Shown here in pieces: positions 15,117 to 35,688 of a DNA stretch of 64,000 bases (position 1 is the stretch's first letter; every line of letters begins with the position of its first letter). Source of the DNA: a virus; the IMG/VR virus record IMGVR_UViG_3300030107_007542, positions 96,001-160,000 of that record; one strand, written 5' to 3'. The position numbers were made by a program, and so were the translations under genes. The notes beneath the pieces are model-generated. The model made no database searches. It was not told where the DNA came from and was given only the letters and a program-made list of their open reading frames with translations.

Positions 15117-15329
15117 CTATTCCTCTATAGAGGAAATGAGATCGCCTAGCTCAGTGTTTTCTAAACTCACTACAGGAGGGTTAGTAATAACGAGAGCGCT
15201 TTGAGATTGATCCTCGGGATCAACTTGAAAGTTCATCTCTTTCAAAAGCGGTACAATGTCTGTTTGTTCCAATAAGGATTTTTGGAGCGCCATCATGAGG
15301 GCGCCCATGGCTTGGTCGGTAAGTTTCAT
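15117..15329 (-). CDS. Hypothetical protein
   Basis: 70-aa ORF with 4-nt overlap coupling to the upstream gene. Confidence 0.65.
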   Translation of the reverse strand: MKLTDQAMGALMMALQKSLLEQTDIVPLLKEMNFQVDPEDQSQSALVITNPPVVSLENTELGDLISSIEE

Positions 15330-16620: not shown

Positions 16621-16622
16621 TT

Positions 16623-19298: not shown

Positions 19299-20250
19299 TG
19301 TGTCGATTATCTACAATCTCCTGGTTCTCCTTGAACCATTTAATGGTGTCTACGATTCCCTCTTCGATACTAACAGTTGGTTCGAAGCCGTGGGACTTTG
19401 CGCGAGTCATGTCAAACACCCTGCGTGCATCGCCTGTGGGCTTTGTTGTATCCCATCGTACCTCGATGTCTTTACCGCAGTGCTTGACTACTAGATCCAC
19501 AATGGTCTTAATTTGCACTCCATCGCCGGAGCCTAAATTAATAGGGTCCGTAACCCCGTTCTCCACCGCGTGTAGCATACCTAGTGCAACATCCCGGGAA
19601 TGAATAAAGTCCCTAATAGGAGACCCGTCGCCCCATACTTCAAGGTGGTCATTCTCTAGGGCCTTACGCACCAGTGATGGAACTACCATAGCATTCTCAG
19701 GGTCAAAGTTGTCGTATGGACCATACACGTTTGCCGGCCGGACTATAGAAACGCAGTCCCAACCGTACTGTATGGAATACGCCTGTGCTTGTAGCTCCCC
19801 GATCCTCTTGGCCCAACCAGCAAAGCGGTCGTTATCAGAGGGAAAAGTACTCCACACATCATCTTCCTTAAAAACCTCAGCTGGGTGATATACCCCAACA
19901 CTGCTAGTATAGAGGTACCACTTAACTCCTTGGGCTCGTGCAGCCTCCATCATGTTGGTATTAAACTGCAACATTGGTACCATGAAGTCTGCTGGTTGTT
20001 CTCGGCACATCTTGGGTGAACCCTTAACTCCGACGAGGTTGAAAACGTAGTCCATCCCCTCACAAATCTCCAGACACTTATCAAAGTATCGCAAGTCTGC
20101 CTTAACAAACTGTACACTCTCTGGGAGTCCCTGTGGGGTATCTAGTGAGACTACATATACCTGGGCTCCTCTCTCCACTAGCAAATCTACTAGAGGCCGG
20201 CCTATCATCCCAGTACCCCCTGTTACTAATACCTTTTGTCCCTCAAACAT
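19282..20250 (-). CDS. NAD-dependent epimerase/reductase (GDP-L-fucose synthase/ColC-like)
   Basis: VLVTGGTGMIG, YTSSVGVY, AGWAKR, RPANVYGPYDNF, VWGDGSPIRDFIH. Confidence 0.82.
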   Translation of the reverse strand: MFEGQKVLVTGGTGMIGRPLVDLLVERGAQVYVVSLDTPQGLPESVQFVKADLRYFDKCLEICEGMDYVFNLVGVKGSPKMCREQPADFMVPMLQFNTNMMEAARAQGVKWYLYTSSVGVYHPAEVFKEDDVWSTFPSDNDRFAGWAKRIGELQAQAYSIQYGWDCVSIVRPANVYGPYDNFDPENAMVVPSLVRKALENDHLEVWGDGSPIRDFIHSRDVALGMLHAVENGVTDPINLGSGDGVQIKTIVDLVVKHCGKDIEVRWDTTKPTGDARRVFDMTRAKSHGFEPTVSIEEGIVDTIKWFKENQEIVDNRHNAFRK

Positions 20251-21442
20251 TGTTTATCCTTTCACACAAGTCAATTATTTGTTCTCTCGTTAAGTCAATA
20301 TGATTTCCCACATATAAACTAAAGTCATGGATGTGGTCGGCTACGTCCAGACGACCCACAATCTTATATTCATAGAGTCCTTCTCTCAGGTATGGCTGGC
20401 GGGCCTGGTTGCCCCCTCCTGCCGTACCGAGGCGATACTCTACCCCAACCTCCTCTAGGACGCCTGCAATGCGGCAGAGAAGCTCCTTGTCCGTCTCCTG
20501 CAGGATTAAGGGTAGTGCAAAGTTACTATTACCCTCTAGTGCATAGTCGGTGAAGAACCGCTGGGAGTTTAGGTGTGAAACCCAGCATTCCAAATTCTCA
20601 ACGCGGCGAGCGATATTTGAATCAAGCCGTTGCAGCTGTTCCAGTCCCAGGACTGCGTTCATCTCCATGCTGCGTAGATTATATCCGGGCACAGCAAAAG
20701 TAAAGAGAGGATTGAGATCTGGATAATTCTTCTTATAACGATCTTGGAAAGCCGGAGATGCCTCGCGGGTCATACCATGGGATCGAAACAAACGCGCGTA
20801 CTCATGGATCTCCGGGTTATTTGTGCAAACAACGCCGCCTTCAATTGTTGTGATGTGGTGGCCAAAATAAAACGAGAAGTTAGACATATCACCGAAGGCG
20901 CCAATTTTCTCACCATTGTATGTGGCCCCATGAGATTCACAACAGTCCTCAATCAACAGAATGTTGTATCGATCAGCTAGTTCTCGTAGCTCAGTTGACA
21001 TGGCGTTAAAGCCCATCGCATGCACCAAAACAATAGCCTTTGTGTAGGGGGTGACTGCTTCTTGGATATTCTCAAACGTCATTGAAAAATTGCTTTTATC
21101 AACATCAACAAAAACAGGCGTCATCCCTAGATTAACCACAGGAGCAATATCCGAAACCCAACCAATGGGAGGCACAATAACCTCCCCAACTCCTTTAAGC
21201 TCTTTAACGATTGACATCATGATATAGTTGGCCGAGGCGCCCGAATTTACAAACGTGGTGTGATTGACCTGCAACCACTCAGACCACTTGCTTTCAAACT
21301 CTCGTACCTTGGGTCCATTTGTAAAACGAACGTTAGGGGTCTTAATAAAATCAATCAAAGCCTGCTTATCAGACTCAGTAATGTTGTCATTAATCAAAGG
21401 CCACGTAAATTTATTTGGTGCCATAATATTCTCCATATTCAA
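20243..21442 (-). CDS. DegT/DnrJ-family PLP enzyme, His-type (ColD-like NDP-4-keto-6-deoxysugar 3-dehydratase)
   Basis: EDCCESHGA and SFYFGHHITTIEGG (His where aminotransferases have the Schiff-base Lys); no Fe-S Cys cluster. Start may be ATG 21424. Confidence 0.8.
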   Translation of the reverse strand: MNMENIMAPNKFTWPLINDNITESDKQALIDFIKTPNVRFTNGPKVREFESKWSEWLQVNHTTFVNSGASANYIMMSIVKELKGVGEVIVPPIGWVSDIAPVVNLGMTPVFVDVDKSNFSMTFENIQEAVTPYTKAIVLVHAMGFNAMSTELRELADRYNILLIEDCCESHGATYNGEKIGAFGDMSNFSFYFGHHITTIEGGVVCTNNPEIHEYARLFRSHGMTREASPAFQDRYKKNYPDLNPLFTFAVPGYNLRSMEMNAVLGLEQLQRLDSNIARRVENLECWVSHLNSQRFFTDYALEGNSNFALPLILQETDKELLCRIAGVLEEVGVEYRLGTAGGGNQARQPYLREGLYEYKIVGRLDVADHIHDFSLYVGNHIDLTREQIIDLCERINNV

Positions 21443-21947
21443 CTATAAGAGTGGGTCGAGCGTCGTCTCGTTCGTAGGCTTTCTGAAAGGCCGGAAAGAT
21501 CTCTTCTGGCTCCTTAAGCTCAACCACATCCACATAAGTGAGCATTTTCCGAAATGCCTCAGTATGGTTCTGGGTATGCTGAGGGCCGGCGTCAATGGGT
21601 GTTTTCGCTCCAATAGCCACTCTAATGATAACGCGTGGGCGCATATCCCCGGACGACATTACATTAATCTTATCCAAATGATTCACAAGCTGGTTACACG
21701 CCAAAATAAAGAAATCAAAACGAGGATACATTGTAATCGGAACAAGACCCGTAAGGGCCATGCCCGTAGACAGCCCCAATTGTGTCTCTTCAAAGACCGG
21801 TAGTTCTACACGCTTGTCCAAGGGGACATTCACCAGTGTGCTAGAAATAGCGTGACCGCTAACGCGGCATGCCTGCCCCAGAAAGATTGTGTCTTTCTGT
21901 TGCCCAAGCCAGTCCATAGACCGGATTAATTCATCGCGATATTTCAT
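21411..21947 (-). CDS. Transketolase/pyruvate dehydrogenase E1 beta-like subunit (pyrimidine-binding domain only)
   Basis: ELPVFEETQLGLSTGMALTG, NQLVNHLDK, GPQHTQ. Lacks the C-terminal domain. Start set at MKYRD. Confidence 0.82.
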   Translation of the reverse strand: MKYRDELIRSMDWLGQQKDTIFLGQACRVSGHAISSTLVNVPLDKRVELPVFEETQLGLSTGMALTGLVPITMYPRFDFFILACNQLVNHLDKINVMSSGDMRPRVIIRVAIGAKTPIDAGPQHTQNHTEAFRKMLTYVDVVELKEPEEIFPAFQKAYERDDARPTLIVEYGEYYGTK

Positions 21948-21949
21948 AA

Positions 21950-22582
21950 CTAAAAATTCACCCATTTTCCAGTACCATGATGGGGGTATTCCATCTCGTA
22001 CGCATAATATATAACATCATCTGGAATGGGTTGTTTGACCCCCCACGCCATATCCGTCGGAGTGTGGACGCTCATATTGTTATCTTCAATAACCCACTGC
22101 AAGGGAAGGTCAAAGTTTTTGGCATATTTATAGCTTTCATAAAATACGCCCCCTTCGGCGGTCATATCTCCAACAAAACACCACACTCGGTTGGGCGATT
22201 TAAGCTTCTTTAGGCCAGCTGCAGCGCCCAGGGCCATCGGGATAATCCCTCCAACAATCGAAGATGCATAAAAATTAGGATTGACGTTGTTCGTTCCCAT
22301 GCTGTGTCCTTTGACAATGTTCGCAAACAGCTTATCTTCGGGGACACCGTGTAACAAGGCGTGATAATGATTTCGCCAGGGAACAAAAACCCAGTCTTTC
22401 TCGCTTACGTGTTGAAAAATCTCAATGAGTTGTTCCTCATTGTTTTTTGCTAGGTGAATAGGGCCAGCTATTTCTCCGGCCTCGTACTTGTCTCGCACTC
22501 GCGACTCAAAATCTATAAGTTCTTGAGCGGTGTACAACGGTTCCCGAACCTTCTTCAGATGTGATGGTATTTTTAGTGTCAT
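21950..22582 (-). CDS. ThDP-dependent E1 alpha-like subunit
   Basis: GPIHL...EEQLI, WRNHYHAL, CFVGD...EDNN (GDx25-30N ThDP-binding motif). Confidence 0.82.
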   Translation of the reverse strand: MTLKIPSHLKKVREPLYTAQELIDFESRVRDKYEAGEIAGPIHLAKNNEEQLIEIFQHVSEKDWVFVPWRNHYHALLHGVPEDKLFANIVKGHSMGTNNVNPNFYASSIVGGIIPMALGAAAGLKKLKSPNRVWCFVGDMTAEGGVFYESYKYAKNFDLPLQWVIEDNNMSVHTPTDMAWGVKQPIPDDVIYYAYEMEYPHHGTGKWVNF

Positions 22583-23058
22583 TATTTATCTCTCGGTTGT
22601 AAAATAGGGTTATCAATTGGCCAGTCAATATTCCAGGAAGAATCGTCCCACTTAATGGTGAACTGATCGTTAACATCTGGGTATGATCCAGGGTACAACC
22701 ACTTATAGTGGAACACCGATTCATCGCTCAGGACCAGAAATCCATTTCCAACGCCCGGGGGCAAAAGAACTTGTTTGCGACTTCTTGAATCTAGTATCAT
22801 CGAATCCCATTGTTTATTCGTTGAAGAAGTGGGTCGTGGATCAGCTACCACAAAGTATAGTTCCCCGTATAAGCAGGTCACTAGCTTCCAAGATTTTTGG
22901 TCGCCATGAATTCCCCGTAGGACATTGCGTCGCGAAGTTGAGACTTTATCATGATTGAAATTGAACCTGTGCGTATCAGAATTCCATAAAGTCCAAAGAT
23001 CTCCTCTATAGTCTGTGTACACATCTGGCTGCATAACTTCAACGCCTTCAATCTTCAT
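22582..23058 (-). CDS. rmlC: dTDP-4-dehydrorhamnose 3,5-epimerase
   Basis: DYRGDL, STSRRNVLRGIH, KLVTCLYG, VGNGFLVLSD, IKWDD...IDWP. Confidence 0.88.
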   Translation of the reverse strand: MKIEGVEVMQPDVYTDYRGDLWTLWNSDTHRFNFNHDKVSTSRRNVLRGIHGDQKSWKLVTCLYGELYFVVADPRPTSSTNKQWDSMILDSRSRKQVLLPPGVGNGFLVLSDESVFHYKWLYPGSYPDVNDQFTIKWDDSSWNIDWPIDNPILQPRDK

Positions 23059-23467
23059 TATCGCTCCAGCTAATCTCCCAATCTTTAAACTCGGCCGCCA
23101 AACAATCTATTTTATAATCCTTACGGCCGCCGGCGAGTTCTTGGATCTTGTTCTTTGCTGTATTTCGAATACCATTAAGCCCATGGGTCAGTTCCAGATT
23201 ATTGCCATCCCTGATCCCTTTCCGGTAGTTTGACTCATTATGCCAAATATGTAAATTCATCTGCGATAGAACAACTATCGCCCGCACAACCTCAGCATTT
23301 ATTTCTTCGGCTTCGTTCAAACACACATCGATATCGTGACAAATGTCTTTAATTTCCTGTGCGTATTCCTCTTTATGGTCTGTTATAAAGACTTCTTTCA
23401 GCTGGGTGATAGACAGCCGGTCAACCAGTTCAGCTAAAGTGGGAAGGTATTTTCGTTCACTTGTCAT
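23048..23467 (-). CDS. Hypothetical protein within the sugar cluster
   Basis: 139-aa helical ORF (LPTLAELVDRLSI...) overlapping both neighbours. Confidence 0.65.
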   Translation of the reverse strand: MTSERKYLPTLAELVDRLSITQLKEVFITDHKEEYAQEIKDICHDIDVCLNEAEEINAEVVRAIVVLSQMNLHIWHNESNYRKGIRDGNNLELTHGLNGIRNTAKNKIQELAGGRKDYKIDCLAAEFKDWEISWSDNED

Positions 23468-24320
23468 TCAAAGTCCTTTGTAGATTATCAGCAAATGTGT
23501 CGGCCATTGACATATAGTTTTTGGCAGTCTCAAAGTTTTCCTTCACTGCATCATATCTTTTATGATACTCTTCTGGCGATAAATTGTCAAGTATTTTAAA
23601 TAATTCTTTTCCATCATTAAACGACAGAATTCCATCAGTATTGAAATACTCCCCTATGTTATCACATCCCCAGAAAATTGGAATGGTGCCATGCCTGAAC
23701 ACGTCGACCAAGGTTTCCGTAAAATAGTTGTCCTGCTTTGAGTTCATAACCGTTATGCTAAAATAATAATCTTTAAGCGGCTCCGTCTTACCCTCTTGTT
23801 GAGCAGCGCCAGTACCAATCTCAGGGTTGCCCCATGGGCGATAAGCTTCGCCCCACAAGTCAACATCATAGCGGTCCTGGACCGAGCTGGCAACTACATG
23901 GCGTAACCGATGGCCTACGGTCCAGTTCTTTTTAGACGCTATTAGAGACATAAGCTTAGTCTTGTCATGTAGACCCGCATCAGCATCAGCTACTCGCGAG
24001 GATGCAATAATACTCTTAACATATTTTGGACCTCTATCCAGAAGAGTTTGATCAAACGTAAAGATATGATCAAATTTATGCTCCGTCTGAAGTATGTGAT
24101 CATAGGCAAACGGATGAACTTCCCGGCACTCTAAAATCCAAGCAACCTTTTTAGTGCACTGTACCTTATCTACCCACGGTGACAATAAGTCCTTATCAGT
24201 AAAGACCGCAGGACCATCAAATGCTGGCTGACCATGAACCCACTCAATCTTCTCCTGCGAGTGTTCCTTATACCCTTCTGGCGTAAGACTATCAAATAAA
24301 TTGGCTCTAAAGGTCGTCAT
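23457..24320 (-). CDS. Glycosyltransferase, GT10 (fucosyltransferase)-like
   Basis: MSLIASKK...GHRLRH, LKDYYFSITVMNS..NYFTETLVD...GTIPIFWG resembles the GT10 alpha-1,3-FucT motif. Start set at MTTFR. Confidence 0.7.
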   Translation of the reverse strand: MTTFRANLFDSLTPEGYKEHSQEKIEWVHGQPAFDGPAVFTDKDLLSPWVDKVQCTKKVAWILECREVHPFAYDHILQTEHKFDHIFTFDQTLLDRGPKYVKSIIASSRVADADAGLHDKTKLMSLIASKKNWTVGHRLRHVVASSVQDRYDVDLWGEAYRPWGNPEIGTGAAQQEGKTEPLKDYYFSITVMNSKQDNYFTETLVDVFRHGTIPIFWGCDNIGEYFNTDGILSFNDGKELFKILDNLSPEEYHKRYDAVKENFETAKNYMSMADTFADNLQRTLNDK

Positions 24321-24612
24321 CAAAAAAGTCCCTGCTATTAATGGCTTTATCATCAATAAAAATGTCGTAATGAGGCTTCCCTAGTTTAAGTTCATGATGT
24401 TTAGCTCCCCACTCTTCTAACTGGTTGGTTGTTAGCTCAGTCCAGTCCCGGCCTGTTACACCGCCGCGAGCAGTCCAATAAACTATAGTATGACCGTCGT
24501 CATATAACTCATTAATTTTTTTGATGTTCTCGCGGAGAGGCTTTGCATCCGGATAATATCTTTCTCCAGCATAGAAACAAATTGTTTCATCTATATCCAC
24601 GTAATATATCAT
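24307..24612 (-). CDS. Small HAD-superfamily phosphatase-like protein
   Basis: YYVDIDETIC (DxD), VYWTARG, KPHYDIFIDDKA. Confidence 0.78.
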   Translation of the reverse strand: MIYYVDIDETICFYAGERYYPDAKPLRENIKKINELYDDGHTIVYWTARGGVTGRDWTELTTNQLEEWGAKHHELKLGKPHYDIFIDDKAINSRDFFDDDL

Positions 24613-24614
24613 TC

Positions 24615-24956
24615 CTAGTCTCCCTTCTGTATTCTGTGACTGTCGCTATCGAAATGTTCTGTTGAAAACTCAAACAATTCTGAGTCCTCTAGAGCGATCA
24701 TCTGATGTCGCAGGCCGCGGTACACATGAAAGTTGTCGCCGGCATTAAGGATCAATTCAGTTGCTTGATCTAGATCGTCGTCGTCGGAATATTTGACTAT
24801 CATCTTACCACTTTGCAAATAGAACACTTCATCCTTTAACACATGATAATGCCACGAACAACGCTTGCCTTTATTAAAATATAAAAGCTTTCCGCAATAC
24901 TCTGGCTTGTTAACAATCCAGCGCTCCCAGCCCCATCCTTTGTCTACATGTTGCAT
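24615..24956 (-). CDS. Cupin protein (sugar-phosphate isomerase-like)
   Basis: KGWGWERWI, CSWHYHVLKDEVF, GLRHQMIALEDSELFEFST. Start set at MQHVDK. Confidence 0.78.
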   Translation of the reverse strand: MQHVDKGWGWERWIVNKPEYCGKLLYFNKGKRCSWHYHVLKDEVFYLQSGKMIVKYSDDDDLDQATELILNAGDNFHVYRGLRHQMIALEDSELFEFSTEHFDSDSHRIQKGD

Positions 24957-24957
24957 A

Positions 24958-25908
24958 TTACCACCTAAAGTTGTTTCTACATTCTTCGACGATCTTAGTG
25001 ATCTCTTCATGGAATTTTTTCTTAGGCTCCCAGCCTAAAGCGCGCAGCTTAGAATCATCTAGAGCATAGCGTACGTCCTGACCTAGACGAACAACAGAAA
25101 AATCTACATATTGTTCCCAGTTTTCGTCGGTGCCATAAAATGCTTTCACGATTTGCTTTACTGTCTCCCGATTACTCTGCTCAAAGCCGCCGGCTACGTT
25201 ATAAATCTCGTCCACCACGCCAGCCTCCACAATGGTGACAACTGCTGCCGCAGTGTCTTCAGCATGCAACCAGTTTCGCACGGGGGTTCCCTGGTTATGA
25301 AGTCGAATAGGGTTGTCGCGCGTAAGATTCTTTACAGCAATAGGGATTAATTTCTCTGGGTATTGTCCGATACCGTAGTTATTTGTCGGTCGCAAAATAA
25401 TATAGTTGATATCATAGGTCCTGGCCCACGCATGAATAAGCATATCTGCAGCAGCCTTGGCGGCTGAGTATGGGTTGCTAGGCTTAAGAAGGTCTGTTTC
25501 GGTGTGATCACCGTCTGCAATATCTCCATACACTTCATCTGTGCTTACATGAAAGAAGATGGGTCGATTATTGCAGTTTAATGGCTTATGACGGACCAAA
25601 TCAAGAAGGTTTTTGACCCCCACAATATTACTGTTGATAAATTCGTCGCTGTTAATGATGCTGTTGCCCACATGTGACTCTGCCGCGAAGTTAATAACAT
25701 AATCACAATCATAAAGATGCGTTAGATTACAGATATCTTCGCGTAAAAACCTAAAATTATAATAGGATTCGAACTCTTCCAACAAAGACTCATTAGCTAC
25801 GTAGGTACATTTGTCTATACCATACACTTTCCAGCCCAGTTCTAGGCATTTTCGTGTCGTATATGACCCTATAAAGCCCAAGCATCCTGTAATATAAACA
25901 ATTTTCAT
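24958..25908 (-). CDS. rmlB: dTDP-glucose 4,6-dehydratase
   Basis: ITGCLGFIG, INFAAESHV, HVSTDEVYGD, PSNPYSAAK, RPTNNYG..QYPEKLIP. Confidence 0.88.
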   Translation of the reverse strand: MKIVYITGCLGFIGSYTTRKCLELGWKVYGIDKCTYVANESLLEEFESYYNFRFLREDICNLTHLYDCDYVINFAAESHVGNSIINSDEFINSNIVGVKNLLDLVRHKPLNCNNRPIFFHVSTDEVYGDIADGDHTETDLLKPSNPYSAAKAAADMLIHAWARTYDINYIILRPTNNYGIGQYPEKLIPIAVKNLTRDNPIRLHNQGTPVRNWLHAEDTAAAVVTIVEAGVVDEIYNVAGGFEQSNRETVKQIVKAFYGTDENWEQYVDFSVVRLGQDVRYALDDSKLRALGWEPKKKFHEEITKIVEECRNNFRW

Positions 25909-27245
25909 TGATACTTCTCCATAAATCGATTCACAGAGCCTTCAATATAGTCTAATTTTTCATCAGTAATCCCGGCGAAAGTGCCCAAAAAGAAGGAATT
26001 AGTGGTGATTTTATAGGCTACCGGGAATGTCTCTTTAAGATTTTCGTACTGTCGGCCAAGCTCTGAGTATCCGGGGTGGAACAAAATGTTGCCGGCAAAA
26101 TAACTGCGTGTTTGAATTTTATCCCCTTCCAGGTGGCGCACGATATCTTCACGCGTGAAGGGTGCATCCTCCCTAAGTGTTAGCAAAAAGGCAAACCAAC
26201 AGGGATCTGATTTGGGTGTGGGCTCTGGGAGGTGGCAGTACTTGGCATAGGGCTCGAAAATCTCATGCAAACGTGCAAAGTTTTTGCGGCGGGCTCCGTC
26301 CATCATCGGAAGCTTCTTAAGCTGTTGTAATCCCATAGCTGCTTGCAGTTCTAGGGGCTTGATATTATAGCCAATTTCTTCGAAAACATAACGATGGTCT
26401 GCAATGATCTCTCTCGCACCCGGGAGCCAGTTCTTGAACCTGTTGCCGCAAGCTGTCCCACTTAGGACACATCCCGGCTTAACAGAATTGCAATAGCAAG
26501 CGCGGCCCCAATCACGGAAACTGCTGATGATTTTTTCTAGTCGAGCGGAGTTCATCGCGACGAAGCCGCCTTCGCCCATAGTCATATGATGAGCAGGGTA
26601 AAATGAACAGGTTGAGATATCCCCAAAAGAGCCGAGCTTCTTGCCGTCATATGTTGAACCCAAAGCATCGCAAGCGTCTTCTAAGAAAAGTAAGTCATAT
26701 TTCTCTACTAGGGCCATTACACGATCCATGTCGGGAGGATTCCCCAGCACATGAGCAAACATAAGAGCCTTGATCTCTTTGTTGGTGTCGGCAGCTAAGG
26801 CCGCTTCAACTTGATCAAGATCAAGATTTAAGTCTGGAAGAGTGACGTCCACGAAAACTGGTTTAAAGCCATTCTGGATAATCGGATTAAGAGTCGTAGG
26901 GAAGCATACAACGGGGGTAATAATTTTAGACCCCTCCGGGAGTTGCTTCCATCTTTTGGATTTAAGCGCCGACACCATAAGTAGGTTTGCAGAGCTACCT
27001 GAGTTTGTCAGGACTCCATGAGTCTTTCCTAGGTGTGCGGGGAACTCAACTTCAAATTGACGCCCCTTTTTGCCTAATACAAGCCATCGACTAAGCAGGC
27101 TTTCCACAGCAGCCACGTATTCGTCACTATTATATACGTTGCCTGAATAGGCAATCCAGTCCTCGCCAGGGGTCCAACTCTCGGCGCCCTCGCATTCTTT
27201 AATATATTCATCAACCAAAGTTAAGATAGTGTCTAACTTAGACAT
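25905..27245 (-). CDS. rfbH: CDP-4-keto-6-deoxyglucose 3-dehydratase (E1/DdhC)
   Basis: NSGSSANLL, EDACDALG, SFYPAHHMTMGEGG (catalytic His) and RDWGRACYC...C...CGNRF (2Fe-2S Cys cluster). Confidence 0.9.
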   Translation of the reverse strand: MSKLDTILTLVDEYIKECEGAESWTPGEDWIAYSGNVYNSDEYVAAVESLLSRWLVLGKKGRQFEVEFPAHLGKTHGVLTNSGSSANLLMVSALKSKRWKQLPEGSKIITPVVCFPTTLNPIIQNGFKPVFVDVTLPDLNLDLDQVEAALAADTNKEIKALMFAHVLGNPPDMDRVMALVEKYDLLFLEDACDALGSTYDGKKLGSFGDISTCSFYPAHHMTMGEGGFVAMNSARLEKIISSFRDWGRACYCNSVKPGCVLSGTACGNRFKNWLPGAREIIADHRYVFEEIGYNIKPLELQAAMGLQQLKKLPMMDGARRKNFARLHEIFEPYAKYCHLPEPTPKSDPCWFAFLLTLREDAPFTREDIVRHLEGDKIQTRSYFAGNILFHPGYSELGRQYENLKETFPVAYKITTNSFFLGTFAGITDEKLDYIEGSVNRFMEKYQ

Positions 27246-28062
27246 TTTGTTCCCTCTCCATGACCTGACGGATTCCTTCCTGTAATCCTACCAGATCTAG
27301 ACCTAGTTCCTCCAGCCGAGCGCCGGAGCCGGTGTATGTATAAGCATATCCTTGCTTTTCTAATATAATGCCTGTGCTATTCGTTGTCAAGTTGTTCAGT
27401 TCTTGTGCAACCTCTAACAAACTGCTTTTATCAGGATAACACATGTTATAGTCTACATGTGTTGTGTGTTTTCGCGTCATCAAATGTTCTATCACCTTGA
27501 TAAGATCTCCCACATAAAAGAAATCCATCTTTCGATCTTGAAGGATAAAAACAGGAAGGCCCTCTCTTATTCTCGCCATTGAATTCTTAATGAATCTCGT
27601 ACTTTTCTCCATTGTACCAAAACATCCGAACAAACGCAAGTTAATAATATTCTTATTATGCAGAATAATCTCGCGAGCAATTAAATTCTTGGCTAGTCCG
27701 TAATAATCCGTGGGAATACATCCATAGATATTTTCTTCAACAGCATTCTCGACATTTGAGTACCTATCAAATGCTGCGCCGGAGCCAAACGAAAACATCC
27801 ACTTATACTTATCGGCATGCGCCTTAAGATTGTGAAACATATTTAAGTTAGCCCTAAGGGATGCGAAGCTATTGTCTGCTCTAACAGCAGTGTGGAGTAC
27901 AACATCAATCCGGTGGTTAGAAAAAAAGCTCTCCACCTGTGTTGCATCTGTAAGATCTAGCGTTTGCCGTGGTGCGGCGATGACCTCATGAGTAGTTCGA
28001 GAAAAGTGCTCTACAAACTCTTTACCGAGAAAACCATTTGCTCCGGTTATTAATATCTTCAT
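27238..28062 (-). CDS. NAD-dependent epimerase/reductase (YerF-like SDR)
   Basis: ILITGANGFLG, FGSGAAF, YGLAK (YxxxK), LRLFGCFG. Confidence 0.78.
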   Translation of the reverse strand: MKILITGANGFLGKEFVEHFSRTTHEVIAAPRQTLDLTDATQVESFFSNHRIDVVLHTAVRADNSFASLRANLNMFHNLKAHADKYKWMFSFGSGAAFDRYSNVENAVEENIYGCIPTDYYGLAKNLIAREIILHNKNIINLRLFGCFGTMEKSTRFIKNSMARIREGLPVFILQDRKMDFFYVGDLIKVIEHLMTRKHTTHVDYNMCYPDKSSLLEVAQELNNLTTNSTGIILEKQGYAYTYTGSGARLEELGLDLVGLQEGIRQVMEREQNV

Positions 28063-28073
28063 TTAACACTAGA

Positions 28074-29009
28074 TTATTCCACCCACTTCGCCGATTTTCT
28101 AAGCTCAGTTAGTTGCTCATCTTTAATCGAATATGAGTAGGTTTCTCCCGGGAAGGCTCCACTGTGTACATCTGCCACGTACTGCTCGATAGCCATTTTG
28201 GCCAACACTAGCAAACCATCGCCTCGCTGAGTGCGACCCAGTTGGCGAAGATCTCCGGCGGCTGAAAGATATTCAGTAAACCTACCTACAACCTCCGGTA
28301 CATAACACTTTGCAAACCAAGGTCGGAAAGACTGATAGAAGCCCATCAGATCATGCATAATGACAAGTTGTCCGTCAACACCTCCGCCGGCGCCGATGCC
28401 ATAAATAGGAATTTCCAGCTGCGCTGCGATCTGGGCCGCTGGTTCTGCTGGCATCGCTTCAAGCAAAATAGCAAAGACGCCAGCCTCTTGTAATGCCAAT
28501 GCATCTTCAAGAGTATCCTCGAAGCTCTTTACAGTCTTTCCCTGGACTCGATATCCACCAAAGGAGGTTGTACTCTGAGGAGTGAGCCCCAGGTGCCCCA
28601 CAACCGGAATACCTGCATCAACAATTGCGCGTACGCGAGTGGATACTCGGCGCCCTCCTTCTAGCTTGATAGCATCAGATGCGCACTCTTTTACAAAGCG
28701 CATTGCATTTCTAACTGCTTCCTCATCACTAATCTCATATGACCCCTGAGGCATGTCTCCCACAATAAACGTATTTGGGGCGCCTCTGCGAGCAGAGGAG
28801 GCCATGAAAATCATTTCATCCATCGTAACCGGATTTGTGGTGTCGTATCCTAGTTGTACCATCCCCCCAGAATCGCCAACAAGAATCATATCAACTCCCG
28901 CTTCTTCCGTGACCTGAGCAAACGGCAAATCATAAGCCGTAATCCAAGTTAATGGAGTACCGTTCTTCTTCATGGATACAAAATCTAATATTGTTTTCTT
29001 AGTTGCCAT
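28074..29009 (-). CDS. panB: Ketopantoate hydroxymethyltransferase homologue with C-terminal insertion
   Basis: ITAYD, ILVGDS, IVGDMP, IKLEGG, GHLGLTPQ, LLEAMP, GIGAG, DGQLVIMHDLMG. Confidence 0.9.
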   Translation of the reverse strand: MATKKTILDFVSMKKNGTPLTWITAYDLPFAQVTEEAGVDMILVGDSGGMVQLGYDTTNPVTMDEMIFMASSARRGAPNTFIVGDMPQGSYEISDEEAVRNAMRFVKECASDAIKLEGGRRVSTRVRAIVDAGIPVVGHLGLTPQSTTSFGGYRVQGKTVKSFEDTLEDALALQEAGVFAILLEAMPAEPAAQIAAQLEIPIYGIGAGGGVDGQLVIMHDLMGFYQSFRPWFAKCYVPEVVGRFTEYLSAAGDLRQLGRTQRGDGLLVLAKMAIEQYVADVHSGAFPGETYSYSIKDEQLTELRKSAKWVE

Positions 29010-30796
29010 TATTCCTCCTCAAGTGGTGCGACTACCATATTCTCGTAAAATTCTTCTCTGTCCAGGAAAGGAAGCATGTCCTCTAGCGGTCTAGAAATAA
29101 GGCGACCGTCGGGGAGCTTTTTCGAACCAATTGTTGGTAAGACCGCATCCCACTTTTTACACATCACTTCACAAATTACTGGACCCTTGTATTCTAACAC
29201 CCTTTTGATGCTTCTTTTAAGGCCTTTAAGCTTCGAGGCTCTAAAATATTTAATGCCATAAGCGTTGGCGATTTTTTGAAAATTAGGAAATGAAACTCCC
29301 GATTCCTCATCGGTACCAATAAACCTATCCTCAAAAAATTTTCTTTGTGTTGTGCGAATGGAAAGATAACCATTGTTGTTCCACACAAATATCTTCACCG
29401 GAAATTTATTATAGACGATCGTTTGAAGTTCCTGAATGTTACTTTGGAATGAGCCGTCGCCAGTAATGCCAATAACATCTTTGTTTCCGCGAGCAACACA
29501 TGCGCCAATGCTTGCAGGGAGTGTAAAGCCCATATCGGCTTGACCGCCTGATGTAATATAGCGCTGTTTATTGGTTACCTGAAGCGCCTGGGATGTTACA
29601 TAAAAGGCCGAGCCTGCATCCGATACCACCACATCGTCCGGTCGCATAGAATCAGACAGCACCTTCATAAAGGCATAAAGACTTATGCCATCTTCGTCAC
29701 TTTCAAAATGTTCTGGGAGAGAGACTGGCCACTTTGTTTTCCAGGCCAAACATTTCTGTGCCCATGGAGTGGGAGCCGGAGGGAATCCAACTTTTAGCAA
29801 AAACTCCTTAGCGTCTGCCACAATCAGATGGTCGATTCGGACGGTGTTCTTCTGGTGTTCGAACTTATCAATGTCTACAACAATGAGCTTGGCCTCTCGA
29901 CCAAACAACTCGTAACGATAACCAGTAACAGGGACGCCCAAGCGCGTGCCAATAGCCAAAATTACATCGGCATTTTGCATGGCAAAATTAGCTGCTCGAT
30001 TTCCTTTAATTCCTACGCGCCCAATATTGAGGGGATCGTTAGATGGCAAAAGATCTGCAGCCAGATATGTGTTCACTACAGGAATATTATGCAAATGCAC
30101 AAACTCAGCAAAAATCTCTTGTGCGCCAGCCAATCGAATGCCGTTGCCTGCCAGAATTACGGGACGCTCTGCTTGTGCGAGATATCGACTAACAGCAGCG
30201 AGGTCCTCCACTTCTGGAACGAAGGATTCTTTTTCGGGTGTAAACCTCTTGAGCTTTTCAGGCTCGATAAGAGCGCCCTGGACATCCATCGGAATATCAA
30301 GCCAGACTGGGCCCGGGCGGCCACTGAACGCTAGGTGTACAGCCTTATCAATATGGTAAGCAATCATTTCAGGGTCATTAATCATGACCGCATATTTCGT
30401 CAATGATTCAACAATGGCAATAATATTGGCCTCTTGAACGCCAAGTTGTCGCAAAGGCAAATTAATATTATGTGTGGCCTGCTCTTTATTAACCTGACCA
30501 GAAATAAAAAAGGTAGGAAGGTTGTCCTGCCAAGCTTCCAGGAGCCCCGTTATAGTATTGGTGCTCCCGCACCCCGTTGTGGGCATCACAACGCCCATTT
30601 TGCCACTGTATTTGCCATAGCCAACCGCGGCCATTGCCGAAGCTTGCTCATGATGGCTACAGACTGCTTGTAGTTTTGGATGTTTGGCAACGCCGTCGTT
30701 TAAAAACATAGCACCGCCGCCGGTCAAGGTGAAAACATGTTCTACCCCCAGGTCAACGATTCGCTGTGCTACATAATCTACAACGCGGGTAGGCAT
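29009..30796 (-). CDS. ThDP-dependent acetolactate-synthase-like enzyme (YerE-like)
   Basis: VFTLTGGGAMFL, HHEQASAMAA, TTGCGSTN, SGRPGPVWLDIP, GDGSFQSNIQEL...NNNGY. Confidence 0.88.
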   Translation of the reverse strand: MPTRVVDYVAQRIVDLGVEHVFTLTGGGAMFLNDGVAKHPKLQAVCSHHEQASAMAAVGYGKYSGKMGVVMPTTGCGSTNTITGLLEAWQDNLPTFFISGQVNKEQATHNINLPLRQLGVQEANIIAIVESLTKYAVMINDPEMIAYHIDKAVHLAFSGRPGPVWLDIPMDVQGALIEPEKLKRFTPEKESFVPEVEDLAAVSRYLAQAERPVILAGNGIRLAGAQEIFAEFVHLHNIPVVNTYLAADLLPSNDPLNIGRVGIKGNRAANFAMQNADVILAIGTRLGVPVTGYRYELFGREAKLIVVDIDKFEHQKNTVRIDHLIVADAKEFLLKVGFPPAPTPWAQKCLAWKTKWPVSLPEHFESDEDGISLYAFMKVLSDSMRPDDVVVSDAGSAFYVTSQALQVTNKQRYITSGGQADMGFTLPASIGACVARGNKDVIGITGDGSFQSNIQELQTIVYNKFPVKIFVWNNNGYLSIRTTQRKFFEDRFIGTDEESGVSFPNFQKIANAYGIKYFRASKLKGLKRSIKRVLEYKGPVICEVMCKKWDAVLPTIGSKKLPDGRLISRPLEDMLPFLDREEFYENMVVAPLEEE

Positions 30797-31533
30797 TAAT
30801 CGTCCCTACCCCAGGTACCCTTCCAATAGCCGCGGATAGTATCATCGTAATTGGTGGTTTCTTTGTGCATTCCCCATGTTGCTTGCCCGGGGTGCCACCG
30901 GTACTTATATCCTAACCAACGATCAGCTGGAAAAATGAACACGTTTTTATCGGCTAATCTAAAATACAGGTGATAATCGGCAGCGCCTAGGTACTGCGGA
31001 TCCCATTGCAACAGGCGACGCTCTTTAAGCTCTCGACTATACACCATGGTGGGAGTGTTGACAGGGCTTTTCTGGAACAAAAGTTCCTTAAACTCAGCCA
31101 TGCTCTTGTAATGATGTGCCACCTCTCCTAGAAAGGTCTCTTCTTTTCCTTCAATTCCTTGAATCGGACTCTGGAATGCCAGAATTTTAACAGGAGCCTT
31201 TTCAATATACTCCATAAAATTAGCCACATAAGTGGGAATTATATAGTCATCGGCGCCTAAAATAGTGATATAATCACCGGTGCACAACTTAAGACCCTCA
31301 GTAACTGGCTCATCCCAAGACCATCGATACAGATTAGGAGCCGTTGAAATAACTAATTCAGGGTGATCTTTTTGAATACCCCGGGCAATCTCTAGACTCT
31401 TGTCCGTGCTCTCATTATCAACGAAAATAACCTCTGTATTTTCATAAGTTTGATCAAGGGCCGAGAGAATGCATTTTTCAATCCAATCTTCGGCGTTATA
31501 ACATGGTATTAAGATAGTAACTTTGAGACTCAT
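30796..31533 (-). CDS. Glycosyltransferase family 2
   Basis: VTILIPCYNAE, IFVDNESTD, GDYITILGADD. Confidence 0.88.
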   Translation of the reverse strand: MSLKVTILIPCYNAEDWIEKCILSALDQTYENTEVIFVDNESTDKSLEIARGIQKDHPELVISTAPNLYRWSWDEPVTEGLKLCTGDYITILGADDYIIPTYVANFMEYIEKAPVKILAFQSPIQGIEGKEETFLGEVAHHYKSMAEFKELLFQKSPVNTPTMVYSRELKERRLLQWDPQYLGAADYHLYFRLADKNVFIFPADRWLGYKYRWHPGQATWGMHKETTNYDDTIRGYWKGTWGRDD

Positions 31534-32363
31534 TGCATCAATCCTATGATAAGATCGGGGATTTCATCCCTCTTGGCGCGCATTTTATTAACTAAGTCGG
31601 AGCCCTTAAGTTTGAACCAACTTTCTTGTGTAGCTCCAACTAATTTATTGGTAATGACTTTCATTCCCATCATTCGACTTTCCACCACTATTCGAGACAG
31701 TGTTTCAGGTGTTTGGGGAAAGAAGACTAGCGTATCATTTTCCCCGAGTTGTTCCAGAAATGTATGATAATTGGCACCGGAACACAGAACGTAATCTCGT
31801 TGCGTCGCTTTACAGTATTTGACTGCCGTGGGCGTGTTCTTGTGGACAATAGGGGAATCTAAAACAGCGCAGCGCTCCTTCTTTTCCGTGGTAGCCAGAG
31901 ACTCTAGTTTTTCCAAAGCTTCCTCACTCCACAGATTTCCTCCAACACTCTCTATATTCTCCAACTTCAAATTCTTTTTAACTATATTAGCATGAAAGGA
32001 GCTTTGACACAACACCTTCCGAGCTTTTTGATAAAAATCTACATTTACCAAAGCGTGAGCCGGGGCGACGAAATTGTCGTAGCGCGCTGGATCTCGGGTT
32101 GTTAGATATTTGTGGTCATGTTCGTAAATGACATAGTTTTTCGATTTAAGGGCTTCGCGGCTTTCGGCAGAGAGCCCCATAAAGTTGGCCACAATAAATA
32201 GTTTAGCGCCACAAGTATTAATATAACCTGCATCAATTTGTTGGCTCTTTTTAGTCTCTACAGCTTGCCCCTTAGTTCGGAGAATATCTATCAATTCTTG
32301 ATTATTGAGTTCACCGCCCCCTAAAATTTCATGGGCAAAAAAATCGGCTATGAATACAATCAT
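31530..32363 (-). CDS. Putative glycosyltransferase (divergent GT-B)
   Basis: GGGELNN, YEHDHKY, ETLSRIVVESRMMG..VIT resembles the GT4 ExxxxxxxE motif. Confidence 0.55.
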   Translation of the reverse strand: MIVFIADFFAHEILGGGELNNQELIDILRTKGQAVETKKSQQIDAGYINTCGAKLFIVANFMGLSAESREALKSKNYVIYEHDHKYLTTRDPARYDNFVAPAHALVNVDFYQKARKVLCQSSFHANIVKKNLKLENIESVGGNLWSEEALEKLESLATTEKKERCAVLDSPIVHKNTPTAVKYCKATQRDYVLCSGANYHTFLEQLGENDTLVFFPQTPETLSRIVVESRMMGMKVITNKLVGATQESWFKLKGSDLVNKMRAKRDEIPDLIIGLMQ

Positions 32364-32365
32364 AA

Positions 32366-33649
32366 TTAATCATGTACTTCGAGATCGAACCCTTCAAGCC
32401 ATTCATTAACGTCTACCTCAGTCTCATCAACAATAAGAGAGACAAACTTGGCATACTGACCTTCTTTACTAAAGTTCGTGTCTACATATTTCTTAAGAGC
32501 CTTGGCCTGATTTTTAAAATGAACTGGCTTATCTATAACTTCCCTAAGTGCGCGACGATATGACGCCTCTTTAGCATACGTCCACATGGAGTCTGCTTGG
32601 ATGACGCCTTCCCATCGGGCTGCTTCTTGTACGGGAGCCAGATCGTAATCTACACGAGCGACACGGGGGACCTGCTTCCCTTTCTTATTCGGGCGACAGA
32701 TAAAGTCCATTTGTCCTCCCCACGTAACGGTTACAATAGGGAGTGAATTATAGGATGCTTCGAAAAGCGGTAATCCAAATCCTTCTCCATGAGAGAGGCT
32801 AATCAGAGCTTGCATTGTCGGGTGCTGATAAAGCCAGGTCATTTGCTCTTCAGAAAGCTGACCATGGACCAAATAAATCTTACACTTACGATCTGGAAAA
32901 TCATGAATCAATGCCTGAAGGCGCTTCTTGGTATGAACCCGGTCCATAATGCTTTCATTTGCCGAATTTAATTTCAACACCAACCCAACGTCAGGATCAT
33001 CACTAAACTCACTGCAGAATGCGCGGACCGTTTGCTCCACGTTTTTACGAATGCCCCACTGTTTAACACACAAGAAATTTTTAGTAGTCTCAAATGGAAT
33101 ATCAACCCCGTTTGGGTCTGGTTCGATATCCTTAACAGGATAGCTGATATACTCTACCGGCTTGGTAACGCGCCAGTTTTTAATCATCTCGCCCGTATGA
33201 GGGTTCGGGACATCATACGTGGTTTTCTCGATAACTTTCTTAGAGTGACTTGAAATAGTGATCACCTTATCCATCGTGTTATTAATCATCTCAATCCATT
33301 GAGGCGCAATCTTATTTGTCTCGATACCCGCTGTGTATCCAATATTAACTGGGGCGATGCGTTCAAACTCATTAGGAATTGTAACCTGAAATGACATATC
33401 GAACTGTGGATTTGTCCCTTGTGCTTGGCATTCTTGGACATATTGATTAGTTTTCAGTATCAAGGAGTCAAGCCACTGCCTTTCCTCACTATGTTCTGCT
33501 ATCATGCCAGTATTGCCCCATGGGATATTAAGAAGATGTATGTCGAACAAATCCTCACGAGAACGCATAGAGCGCAAGGAAAACCGAGACTGCTCTCCGT
33601 AGCCCGATCGGGATAAAGCTGGTGCTTTCACCAAAATTCTTTTTCTCAT
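32366..33649 (-). CDS. Glycosyltransferase (GT4-like, GT-B)
   Basis: SRSGYG, RKN, ISLSHGEGFGLPLFEAS...PIVT. Confidence 0.82.
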   Translation of the reverse strand: MRKRILVKAPALSRSGYGEQSRFSLRSMRSREDLFDIHLLNIPWGNTGMIAEHSEERQWLDSLILKTNQYVQECQAQGTNPQFDMSFQVTIPNEFERIAPVNIGYTAGIETNKIAPQWIEMINNTMDKVITISSHSKKVIEKTTYDVPNPHTGEMIKNWRVTKPVEYISYPVKDIEPDPNGVDIPFETTKNFLCVKQWGIRKNVEQTVRAFCSEFSDDPDVGLVLKLNSANESIMDRVHTKKRLQALIHDFPDRKCKIYLVHGQLSEEQMTWLYQHPTMQALISLSHGEGFGLPLFEASYNSLPIVTVTWGGQMDFICRPNKKGKQVPRVARVDYDLAPVQEAARWEGVIQADSMWTYAKEASYRRALREVIDKPVHFKNQAKALKKYVDTNFSKEGQYAKFVSLIVDETEVDVNEWLEGFDLEVHD

Positions 33650-34899
33650 TATAAAACCTCAACTCCGTATGATTTGTATCCGGTTCTCGTCTCCCAAGAA
33701 CCCTTCTCTTCGTAAACTTTAGTAAGCAGCTCGTCCCATCTTTCCATAAACGTCTCAAAATTAAACTGCTTAAGGGCGTATTCACGGCCTAGTCGGCCGA
33801 GTTCATCACGCTCTTCTTGGGACTTCAAAAACATTTCCTTCATAGCGCCCACTACATCTGCTTCTGACAGCCGATCTTCATAAATATATGGTACGGTTTG
33901 CGAACCAATCACCGCCTTAGATGTTGGCTCGATACCTATCCCGAAGGTGGTAGTGCCATCTGTAATCTGATCCTGCATTCCTCCTGTGAGGTTTACAATG
34001 ATGGGCGTCTCGCATGCTAAAGATTCCAGTGTCGCGAGGCCGAAACCCTCCGCGTCAGAAATATTAATGGTGCAGTCGACCGCGTTGTATAGTAACGCTA
34101 GATTTGCAGCATCCATCTTTTCTCGGGAAAACAATACTTCGCCGTTTTTCAGCCCAAGCTCCGCGATGATGGCTTCCAGGTCTTGACCATTGGGGTCTTT
34201 AGGTTCCGTATGCATGATAAGGACCGCCTTGTCATGACCCACTTCGTCCAAGAATTTCTTAAACCAGAAGATCAAGGTTCCCGACTGTTTACGGCGAGCG
34301 TTGCGGTTGTTCCAGAAAAAATAAAACTTATCAGGATCGAAGCGACCCTTCGTAAAATCATTGAGAAGTGGTGAATCTACCTTCTTAAAAATATCCATAT
34401 CTACTGCATGAGGAAGATAGGTAGAATCGACATCCGGGGCAACATTCTGAACTATGTCGTATGTAAGCTTAGAGATGCACGCGATGTGATCATTAGAATC
34501 ATAATATGGCTTATTGAAATGCGGATAAGGGTAGTTGTCCCACACATGATAATAAACCATAGGGACCTGGGCACGGATTTCATTCTCGATACCCCACAAC
34601 CATTCATAAAAGCGTGGATCGGTCATAAACCAGAGGATATCGGGCTTTTGCTGGCCAATCATAGCACGGACTTGGTCAGGATTGCCATATCCATCAACCG
34701 GCCAAATAATCCAGTCTTCATCCCACTTCTCTGTCTTTTGTGGGTTATGGTCTGGATGAGAGATTGCACCCCCAAACGACACAAACTGGTACTTTCCTGT
34801 TTTAAGCATGCCTTCAATCATATACTTAGTTTGAGTGCCTACCCCCGAAGGCGAAAGAGGATGGTCACTGATCGTAAAGATCTTAATTTTATCTGACAT
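33649..34899 (-). CDS. Glycosyltransferase family 4
   Basis: SGVGTQ, NRNARRKQ, ISDAEGFGLATLESLACETPII. Confidence 0.88.
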   Translation of the reverse strand: MSDKIKIFTISDHPLSPSGVGTQTKYMIEGMLKTGKYQFVSFGGAISHPDHNPQKTEKWDEDWIIWPVDGYGNPDQVRAMIGQQKPDILWFMTDPRFYEWLWGIENEIRAQVPMVYYHVWDNYPYPHFNKPYYDSNDHIACISKLTYDIVQNVAPDVDSTYLPHAVDMDIFKKVDSPLLNDFTKGRFDPDKFYFFWNNRNARRKQSGTLIFWFKKFLDEVGHDKAVLIMHTEPKDPNGQDLEAIIAELGLKNGEVLFSREKMDAANLALLYNAVDCTINISDAEGFGLATLESLACETPIIVNLTGGMQDQITDGTTTFGIGIEPTSKAVIGSQTVPYIYEDRLSEADVVGAMKEMFLKSQEERDELGRLGREYALKQFNFETFMERWDELLTKVYEEKGSWETRTGYKSYGVEVL

Positions 34900-34908
34900 A
34901 TGGATTCC

Positions 34909-35688
34909 TTATTTACAATGTTCGGTTTTGTAAAGTTTGCAACGATACGGTTTTTCACACGACAGCCGATTTTTAATCGAGAATCGTTTAGAAATATTAT
35001 AAATTGCTTGGTATAGAAGTTTAAGAGCGTTCTCAGTTTTTTTCTCACCGCTCGTTACTTTAAATAGCTCCACGCGGTTTTTAGATGCCGTTCTTTTTAA
35101 GAGAGCAAAATGCGTTTCAACTTTTTGAGGGTCGATTTTGTGCTTTAAACAAAAGAAATGTTTATACAAAGTGAGTTGATATGTAACTATTTTTTGACTC
35201 TTGCGTCGTGAGTCCCACCCCCATGAACATGTCTTCCAATCAAACAGATGGTACGTGTCTCCTACTTTGACAACAGCATCAACAAAGCCCTTGAAGTGAA
35301 TGTTAAAATTTTCAATAGGTACATAAAGCTTTTCCTCCGAGGAAAAAACTTCATAATCTCCAAAATAATCTTCCAAAGCACCATCGATTTCAGATAAGAT
35401 TGCCGGTGCACAAGATTTCATCTGTTCTACATTCTTGGGGTTGACTTCGATGTTTTTTTCCATTAACTCTTGGAGTTGCTTGTCGAAGCCTATCTGGAAC
35501 ATCTCCTTCTCGTTGATATTCTCTTTTAAAAGTTTTTTCTCACAAACTTCATGCATAGCAGTACCGAAGGCGGTATGCTCATTCCCCTCAAACGGTGAAA
35601 TTCTCTCGATCCAGGCTTTCTTATGATAATGGGGGCATGTGGCCCAGTCTTTTAGTTCGGAATAGGATATATGTTCACGCGTCGTCAT
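34909..35688 (-). CDS. PD-(D/E)XK exonuclease, Cas4/RecB-like
   Basis: ISYSEL..W.TCP, FGTAMH, FKGFVDAVV...LFDWKT, QLTLY and C-terminal C...C....C (possible Fe-S). Start set at MTTREH. Confidence 0.85.
   Translation of the reverse strand: MTTREHISYSELKDWATCPHYHKKAWIERISPFEGNEHTAFGTAMHEVCEKKLLKENINEKEMFQIGFDKQLQELMEKNIEVNPKNVEQMKSCAPAILSEIDGALEDYFGDYEVFSSEEKLYVPIENFNIHFKGFVDAVVKVGDTYHLFDWKTCSWGWDSRRKSQKIVTYQLTLYKHFFCLKHKIDPQKVETHFALLKRTASKNRVELFKVTSGEKKTENALKLLYQAIYNISKRFSIKNRLSCEKPYRCKLYKTEHCK

Follow-up and report, generated by a model that had tools for sequence, protein, structure and literature searches.

A PanB-like enzyme beside a YerE-like carboligase in a viral glycan island: a putative route to an acyl-branched dideoxysugar

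Does a panB-like gene that a virus carries among sugar genes serve vitamin B5 synthesis or another chemistry? This question is raised by a 64,000-nucleotide stretch of DNA (hereafter the window), which covers bases 96001-160000 of the IMG/VR virus record IMGVR_UViG_3300030107_007542, a contig of 193,778 bp rated 100% complete by CheckV. In the window, the panB-like gene belongs to a module of five genes that encode, in the order of transcription, a thiamine diphosphate (ThDP) carboligase, the PanB-like hydroxymethyltransferase, an RmlD-like short-chain dehydrogenase/reductase (SDR), an E1/RfbH-type 3-dehydratase and an RmlB-like 4,6-dehydratase (Table 1). This order and these identities, which had been proposed in an initial annotation, were borne out by the open reading frames (ORFs) and by Pfam and NCBIfam profiles. 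The genes are translationally coupled; the stop and start of neighboring genes overlap or are separated by 11 nt, and the E1 gene overlaps the SDR gene. As judged from sequence comparisons, the phage PanB most likely supplies a building block for the side chain of a branched deoxysugar not described so far, and not vitamin B5.

The PanB-like protein and the other module enzymes

We compared the PanB-like protein with curated profiles and solved structures. It scored 315.8 bits against PF02548 (Pantoate_transf; cut-off 28.7), 288.5 bits against TIGR00222 (equivalog cut-off 207.55) and 306.6 bits against NF001452 (cut-off 272), and an insertion cut the profile match short at position 234 of 259. 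An AlphaFold2 model with a predicted local distance difference test (pLDDT) value of 84 retrieved 1m3u, 3vav and 1o68 in Foldseek, with E values of 1e-25 to 1e-26 and target template modelling scores, TM(target), of 0.87-0.91. According to this model, the phage protein has the (beta/alpha)8 fold of PanB. In the alignment, the residues D46, S47, D85, K115, E117, H139 and E184 were invariant in the canonical, insertion-bearing and viral PanB groups. From 1M3U, we take these residues to be the Mg2+ ligands, the 2-oxoacid-binding serine and lysine and the catalytic glutamate, with Ser47 and Lys115 presumably holding the substrate carboxylate. The likeness to canonical PanB (1M3U, 1OY0) thus extends to the fold, to the metal, substrate and catalytic residues and to scores over the curated cut-offs. 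The phage protein differs from canonical PanB in belonging to a separate clade, in a two-helix insertion of 27-28 aa before the last helix, in the substitutions L48G, F88Q, Q92E, I140L, A155V, V186M and H291Y, and in being linked to sugar genes instead of having pantothenate genes nearby. I140L, A155V, V186M and H219 adjoin catalytic residues and are shared by both PanB clades found in such modules (see below), while L48G, F88Q and Q92E are additional to the insertion-bearing clade. These substitutions may retune the PanB pocket.

The initial annotation had reported the insertion near the C terminus and had regarded it as a mark of a new function. The insertion is real: among 199 aligned PanB sequences it stands out as a clean 27-28-residue indel. 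It spans residues 240-267 of the phage protein, is missing from E. coli 1m3u and M. tuberculosis 1oy0 and was modelled by AlphaFold2 as two short helices (238-249 and 254-261) ahead of the usual last helix. However, its use as a functional mark did not survive. A search of 5.8 billion proteins revealed thousands of bacterial homologs of ~310 aa with ~70% identity over the full length, and the insertion, with invariant residues inside it, was common to all of them. Moreover, two syntenic viral loci (L193 and L203) lack it. Their gene order is that of the window (PD-(D/E)XK nuclease, two GT4 glycosyltransferases, an unknown gene, GT2 glycosyltransferase, ThDP enzyme, PanB, SDR, RfbH, RmlB), and their ThDP, RfbH and RmlB proteins are 61-71% identical to those of the window, whereas their insertion-less PanB is 48% identical. 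The insertion was therefore rejected as a functional determinant, being absent from these two loci and from 38 viral PanB sequences that still flank a YerE-like gene. The same module slot is filled by either PanB lineage, which argues for selection on PanB chemistry itself.

The ThDP enzyme fell under every equivalog cut-off for acetolactate synthase (acetohydroxyacid synthase, AHAS). Its top match among the solved structures was 8rph (436 bits, aligned residues 4-588), followed by 5ahk (266 bits), which we take to be the PpYerE entry, and by plant AHAS (258 bits); PpYerE leads AHAS by a small margin, and the phage enzyme is far closer to JanthE, the protein of 8rph, than to PpYerE. The two YerE-like enzymes with structures are PpYerE and JanthE (PMC12247030), and the latter, from Janthinobacterium sp. 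HH01 (8rph, 8rpi, 8rpj), has unknown physiological substrates and accepts long and hydroxylated donors and ketone acceptors (PMC12188165). ThDP partners of PanB from three other gene orders also matched JanthE first, PpYerE next and AHAS third, so that in every module type JanthE is the solved structure closest to the ThDP partner. The GDG...NN ThDP motif and the glutamate of HHEQ are aligned in the phage enzyme, which has GDG where JanthE has CDG. JanthE gains fivefold activity when Ser or Ala replaces Lys567, a change that opens the cleft at the active site (PMC12188165); the phage residue aligned with Lys567, at about position 556 as counted by hand, is a Thr. The enzyme sits among deoxysugar genes, with no ilv gene detected by the ketol-acid reductoisomerase (KARI) profile in the whole genome. 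These comparisons assign it as a YerE-like carboligase, as the initial annotation had supposed, and not an acetolactate synthase.

The 3-dehydratase scored 472 bits against NF011936 (cut-off 423) and matched the E1 structures 3bcx and 3bb8 at 342 bits. Its FYPAHH motif aligns with His220 of E1, where a histidine takes the place of the aminotransferase lysine, and the C...CxC...C pattern for the [2Fe-2S] cluster is retained with a last spacer 3 residues longer. The E1 assignment is therefore solid. The RmlB-like protein scored 293 bits against TIGR01181 (dTDP-glucose 4,6-dehydratase), under its cut-off of 365, and only 70 bits against the CDP type. The SDR is a candidate YerF-type branch-ketone reductase or 4-ketoreductase.

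Phylogeny and neighborhoods of module-type PanB

We gathered 236 loci (numbered L) by PanB patterns alone, so that the sampling was blind to neighbors. The tree of 199 non-identical PanB sequences contained three groups. An insertion clade (88 sequences, support 0.958) was sister to a viral insertion-less clade (38 sequences, support 1.0), and these two module clades were joined with a support of 0.996, apart from 73 canonical bacterial PanB sequences. Counting neighbors within 10 kb in loci flanked by 8 kb or more on each side, we found a homolog of the 595-aa ThDP enzyme near PanB in 47 of the 52 module-clade loci, from bacteria and viruses, and in none of the 15 canonical panB loci (Fisher p ~4e-11, a descriptive value since the loci are related). 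An RfbH homolog was present in 30 of the 52. The ThDP gene lay within 400 bp of PanB, in either order, in 70 loci (29 of the insertion clade and 41 viral), and an SDR homolog lay within this distance in 17 insertion-clade and 30 viral insertion-less loci. These results upheld two proposals of the initial annotation, namely that homologs of this PanB are linked to sugar loci and that it is not a pantothenate gene. In addition, wherever PanB occurred with the pyruvate-restricted E1alpha/beta branching enzymes, a YerE-like enzyme was present too, which fits a role in supplying a donor better than one on acetyl branches.

In the bacterial loci L238 and L239, the genes run in the order NTP-transferase, E1-like DegT protein (42% identical to the phage E1), 4,6-dehydratase, SDR, PanB, ThDP enzyme and GtrA/GT2; the SDR of L238 is just 19% identical to that of the phage. 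In Marinimicrobia, the ThDP-PanB pair lies amid epimerases, methyltransferases, E1alpha/beta and GT2, and in Elusimicrobia, PanB lies near a flippase, a glycosyltransferase and radical SAM enzymes, with the ThDP gene ~7.5 kb downstream. Among five bacterial genomes with an insertion-type PanB, two also encode a full-length canonical PanB, and PanC was not seen in three. We also considered whether the insertion type is the normal PanB of some phylum, and this was rejected for the phylum sampled: in 120 other genomes from the phylum of one carrier, every PanB found was canonical and none was of the insertion type, which indicates that the latter is a sporadic accessory gene.

No PanB-ThDP pair was found in GenBank phages, and the ThDP matches in the phage collection were all AHAS on bacterial-looking records. 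The panB of 'Microcystis phage MaAM05' was rejected as a comparable case, since it adjoins panC and suf genes. The end of that record (MW495066.1, 251354-273876) carries panB, panC, guaD, pxpA and sufBCDS-iscU and has the appearance of a bacterial chromosome.

A putative pathway and its alternatives

Sugars with longer branches are made by one known scheme, in which a neighboring aldolase provides a gamma-hydroxy-alpha-keto acid, a YerE-like enzyme joins this acid to CDP-3,6-dideoxy-4-keto-glucose (CDP, cytidine diphosphate) and a YerF-like reductase completes the sugar (Steitz et al. 2022, PMC9306805). For erwiniose, the donor is made by the aldolase ErwI, coupling is performed by ErwE and reduction by ErwF; ErwE takes 4-hydroxy-2-oxobutanoate and refuses pyruvate, which excludes a branch-first order in this system (PMC9306805). 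It has also been reported that ketopantoate hydroxymethyltransferase (KPHMT, the PanB enzyme), used as a carboligase in vitro, yields 3-substituted 4-hydroxy-2-oxoacids (PMC11331486). On balance, we favor the explanation that the five phage genes are the core of a pathway to an acyl-branched 3,6-dideoxy sugar, with PanB in place of the pyruvate aldolase. PanB would occupy the aldolase slot because no aldolase family was matched among the scanned island ORFs, four of which had no Pfam match at all, and its substrate would be a free 2-oxoacid because the Mg2+, 2-oxoacid and catalytic residues are invariant.

We infer the substrates, the order of the steps and the product as follows. The RmlB-like enzyme would form a nucleoside diphosphate (NDP)-4-keto-6-deoxyhexose, from which E1/RfbH, a pyridoxamine phosphate (PMP) and [2Fe-2S] enzyme, would strip the 3-OH with electrons from host ferredoxin/flavodoxin systems. 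The PanB-like enzyme, with Mg2+ and 5,10-methylene-tetrahydrofolate, would hydroxymethylate pyruvate, 2-oxobutanoate or 2-oxoisovalerate to give 4-hydroxy-2-oxobutanoate, its 3-methyl homolog or ketopantoate, respectively. The JanthE-like enzyme would then decarboxylate this acid and place a 3-hydroxyacyl unit on C-4 of the keto-sugar, the SDR would reduce the branch ketone, and GT2 and other glycosyltransferases would attach the sugar to an acceptor. From these steps one would expect a 3,6-dideoxyhexose that first bears a 4-C-(3-hydroxyacyl) branch and then a 1,3-dihydroxyalkyl one; which of the three 2-oxoacids is used would set the exact form of the branch.

This putative pathway resembles the acyl-branched clusters for erwiniose (ErwI/ErwJ-ErwE-ErwF, Pectobacterium atrosepticum), caryophyllose (MMAR_2331/2332) and gastriose (MygI/MyGE/MygF), in which a YerE-like carboligase likewise lies beside an NAD(P)H reductase, with a 4,6-dehydratase, E1 and a gene for the gamma-hydroxy-alpha-keto acid donor (PMC9306805). 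It differs from them in that the donor enzyme is of the folate-dependent PanB type whereas theirs is a pyruvate aldolase (ErwI, MygI, MMAR_2331), in a predicted branch of C3 to C5 with a terminal CH2OH, in being phage-borne and in encoding neither E3 nor an RfbF/RmlA-type nucleotidyltransferase. In the synthesis of yersiniose A, as far as it is summarized in later papers, a ThDP enzyme likewise puts a branch on CDP-3,6-dideoxy-4-keto-glucose, followed by reduction of the ketone in that branch (Chen, Guo and Liu 1998, via PMC9306805 and PMC12247030); however, YerE takes pyruvate, giving a C2 branch, and has no PanB partner.

In our analysis, profile searches were extended to the whole 193,778-bp genome to see what the virus lacks. 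PanC, ApbA/PanE and KARI had zero matches, and there was no match for an E3-type reductase (NAD_binding_1 PF00175; PF00111), for a plant-type ferredoxin (Fer2) or for an RmlA/RfbF-type nucleotidyltransferase (NTP_transferase PF00483). The absence of panC, panE, ilvC and E3, first noticed in the window, thus holds for the genome. Of the gene set for an NDP-3,6-dideoxy-4-keto-hexose, only the 4,6-dehydratase and E1 were found, and host enzymes may serve as the missing nucleotidyltransferase and E3. The lack of E3 had been considered atypical, as had the combination of a dTDP-type dehydratase with a CDP-type E1. Neither now appears anomalous: L238 and L239 also show no E3 within 19 kb, and the nucleotide cannot be read from the sequence. 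SpnQ, an E1 homolog of a dTDP pathway, functions without a dedicated E3.

Several observations weigh against the proposed pathway. The loci are kin, so the linkage counts do not represent independent events, and in ~40% of the linked loci no RfbH gene was seen within 10 kb. One metagenome-assembled genome has PanC and solely an insertion-type PanB, which may there synthesize ketopantoate. A small number of insertion-type PanB genes are solitary and lie outside sugar contexts (L240 and L120; among Kdp and glycoside hydrolase genes), which means that the clade is not exclusive to glycan loci. With no match in the genome for an RmlA/RfbF-type nucleotidyltransferase or E3, the acceptor sugar and the nucleotide that it bears can be named only tentatively. 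Finally, we found in the searchable literature no natural sugar whose branch derives from a 3-hydroxypropanoyl or hydroxypivaloyl unit and no paper that pairs PanB/KPHMT with branched sugars or YerE-like modules, a search that did not cover the survey of YerE-like clusters by Krug et al. 2024.

Explanations other than the acyl-branch pathway were considered against the same evidence. If the gene were an ordinary auxiliary metabolic gene raising the ketopantoate and coenzyme A (CoA) supply of the host during infection, its score over the TIGR00222 equivalog cut-off and its complete catalytic residues would be expected; such a role is nevertheless highly improbable for a panB that is translationally coupled within a sugar operon, lies in a genome without panC, panE and ilvC and belongs to a clade that is distinct from housekeeping PanB and linked with YerE-like genes. 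It is also possible that PanB, the ThDP enzyme and the SDR produce a free small hydroxy-acid or acyloin, which would become a glycan substituent by an ester, amide or ketal without a C-C branch. The trio does occur in loci without RfbH, for example in a Marinimicrobia locus (L002) with methyltransferases and an alcohol dehydrogenase, and the DegT aminotransferase of the island could give an amino sugar for acylation. However, domain scans identified no acyltransferase, ligase or carrier protein among the island ORFs, all ThDP partners are nearest to ketone-accepting YerE-like enzymes, and the gene for E1, the maker of the known acceptor, overlaps the SDR gene, so we regard a free product as unlikely.

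The initial annotation had placed the steps in the reverse order, with the YerE-like enzyme adding an acetyl group from pyruvate first and PanB then hydroxymethylating the methyl beside the branch ketone on the NDP-sugar. The linkage data also fit this order, the tertiary alpha-hydroxy ketone could conceivably chelate Mg2+ as a 2-oxoacid does, and I140L, A155V, V186M and H219 lie near the catalytic residues in both module clades. Yet the Mg2+ and 2-oxoacid ligands are invariant, including the presumed carboxylate holders Ser47 and Lys115, and the pyruvate-restricted E1alpha/beta enzymes are never the sole branching partners of PanB. In the erwiniose system, moreover, this order was rejected by a test in which the relative ErwE did not take pyruvate (PMC9306805). 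An acetyl-first order is thus quite unlikely, and less likely than prior action of PanB on a free 2-oxoacid. A related idea needs no ThDP enzyme: PanB would hydroxymethylate ring C-3 or C-5, the neighbors of the 4-keto carbon in the NDP-sugar. The chemistry is plausible, and bacterial polysaccharides do contain sugars with C-hydroxymethyl groups; but the idea leaves the near-obligate adjacency of the ThDP gene unexplained, the 2-oxoacid ligands are retained, and we give it very little credence. In general, direct action of PanB on a nucleotide sugar with methylene-tetrahydrofolate, whether at an acetyl branch or at a ring carbon, seems doubtful. If true, it would constitute a new reaction class of the PanB family and a new route of sugar-branch extension, whose product would decorate the phage virion or remodel the host surface.

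The surrounding glycan island and its implications

The genome also encodes myovirus baseplate genes, an endolysin and PhoH, and its closest isolated relatives, Microcystis phage Mel-JY01 and the Flavobacterium 'immuto' phages, are only ~29% identical (baseplate protein). The module lies in a glycan island of 19.5 kb (Table 1). Read along the direction of transcription, the island encodes two GT4 proteins, an unknown gene and GT2, then the five-gene module, followed by a cupin, a 101-aa ORF, a GT10-like protein, a 139-aa ORF, an RmlC-like protein, the shortened E1alpha/E1beta pair, a DegT aminotransferase, two GDP-fucose-synthase-like SDRs, a GMD-like 4,6-dehydratase and a split HldE-like kinase/adenylyltransferase. 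L007 carries a nearly identical island, and L008, L193 and L203 carry rearranged forms of it; in all four loci, GT2 is kept as the neighbor of the ThDP gene, and in bacterial loci GT2 genes likewise follow the PanB-ThDP pair. The position of the PD-(D/E)XK nuclease gene is kept in L007, L193, L203 and L194 at 25-91% identity.

The GMD-type dehydratase and the two SDRs of the island suggest at least one further deoxysugar, and the split HldE-like pair together with the GMD-type dehydratase suggests that a heptose-type sugar is made too. The kinase (245 aa) resembles domain I of rfaE (TIGR02198, 117 bits) and the adenylyltransferase (201 aa) resembles domain II (TIGR02199, 121 bits), both scores being under the cut-off. 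HldE-like homologs directly follow the ThDP-PanB-SDR trio in many viral loci (for example L221), and the pathway may be fed by a sugar of heptose type or one activated by a kinase. The phage E1alpha/E1beta proteins are unusually short, reaching ~60% of the size of their Marinimicrobia counterparts (341 and 352 aa), and a transketolase C domain is missing from the beta protein; the pair may form a second, C2-type sugar-branching system.

Table 1. Positions of the module, the island and adjoining genes in the window
Feature	Position	Strand	Remarks
Glycan island	15326-34899	-	All genes co-directional, ends overlapping or nearly abutting
Split HldE-like pair	15326-16620	-	Two proteins ending the island
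GMD-type 4,6-dehydratase (335 aa) and two GDP-fucose-synthase-like SDRs (317, 322 aa)	16623-20250	-	
E1alpha-like (210 aa) and E1beta-like (184 aa) ThDP subunits	21411-22582	-	Adjoin RmlC-like and DegT genes
GT10 (fucosyltransferase-like) domain protein	23457-24356	-	Homologs recur in related viral sugar modules
RmlB-like NDP-hexose 4,6-dehydratase, 316 aa	24958-25908	-	GDP_Man_Dehyd and Epimerase domains
E1/RfbH-type PMP and [2Fe-2S] NDP-4-keto-6-deoxyhexose 3-dehydratase, 446 aa	25905-27245	-	NF011936
RmlD-like SDR, 274 aa	27238-28062	-	Epimerase and RmlD_sub_bind domains
PanB-like hydroxymethyltransferase, 311 aa	28074-29009	-	Pantoate_transf, TIGR00222
JanthE/YerE-like ThDP carboligase, 595 aa	29009-30796	-	TPP_enzyme_N, _M and _C domains
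GT2 glycosyltransferase, 245 aa	30796-31533	-	Coupled, upstream of the ThDP gene; domain match
PD-(D/E)XK nuclease gene	34909-35703	-	Directly upstream of the island

The phage carries its own complex glycan chemistry beside its tail genes. If the proposed pathway is true, automatic annotations of panB and acetolactate synthase would be mislabelled in phages and in many uncultured bacteria, and these genes would form a two-enzyme device for a never-isolated class of C-branched deoxysugars instead of being auxiliary genes of vitamin or amino-acid metabolism. The concrete prediction would be a 3,6-dideoxyhexose with a 4-C-(1,3-dihydroxyalkyl) branch. The proposed pathway would also suggest what kind of donor JanthE-type enzymes may use physiologically and would provide biocatalysis with a natural KPHMT-carboligase pair.

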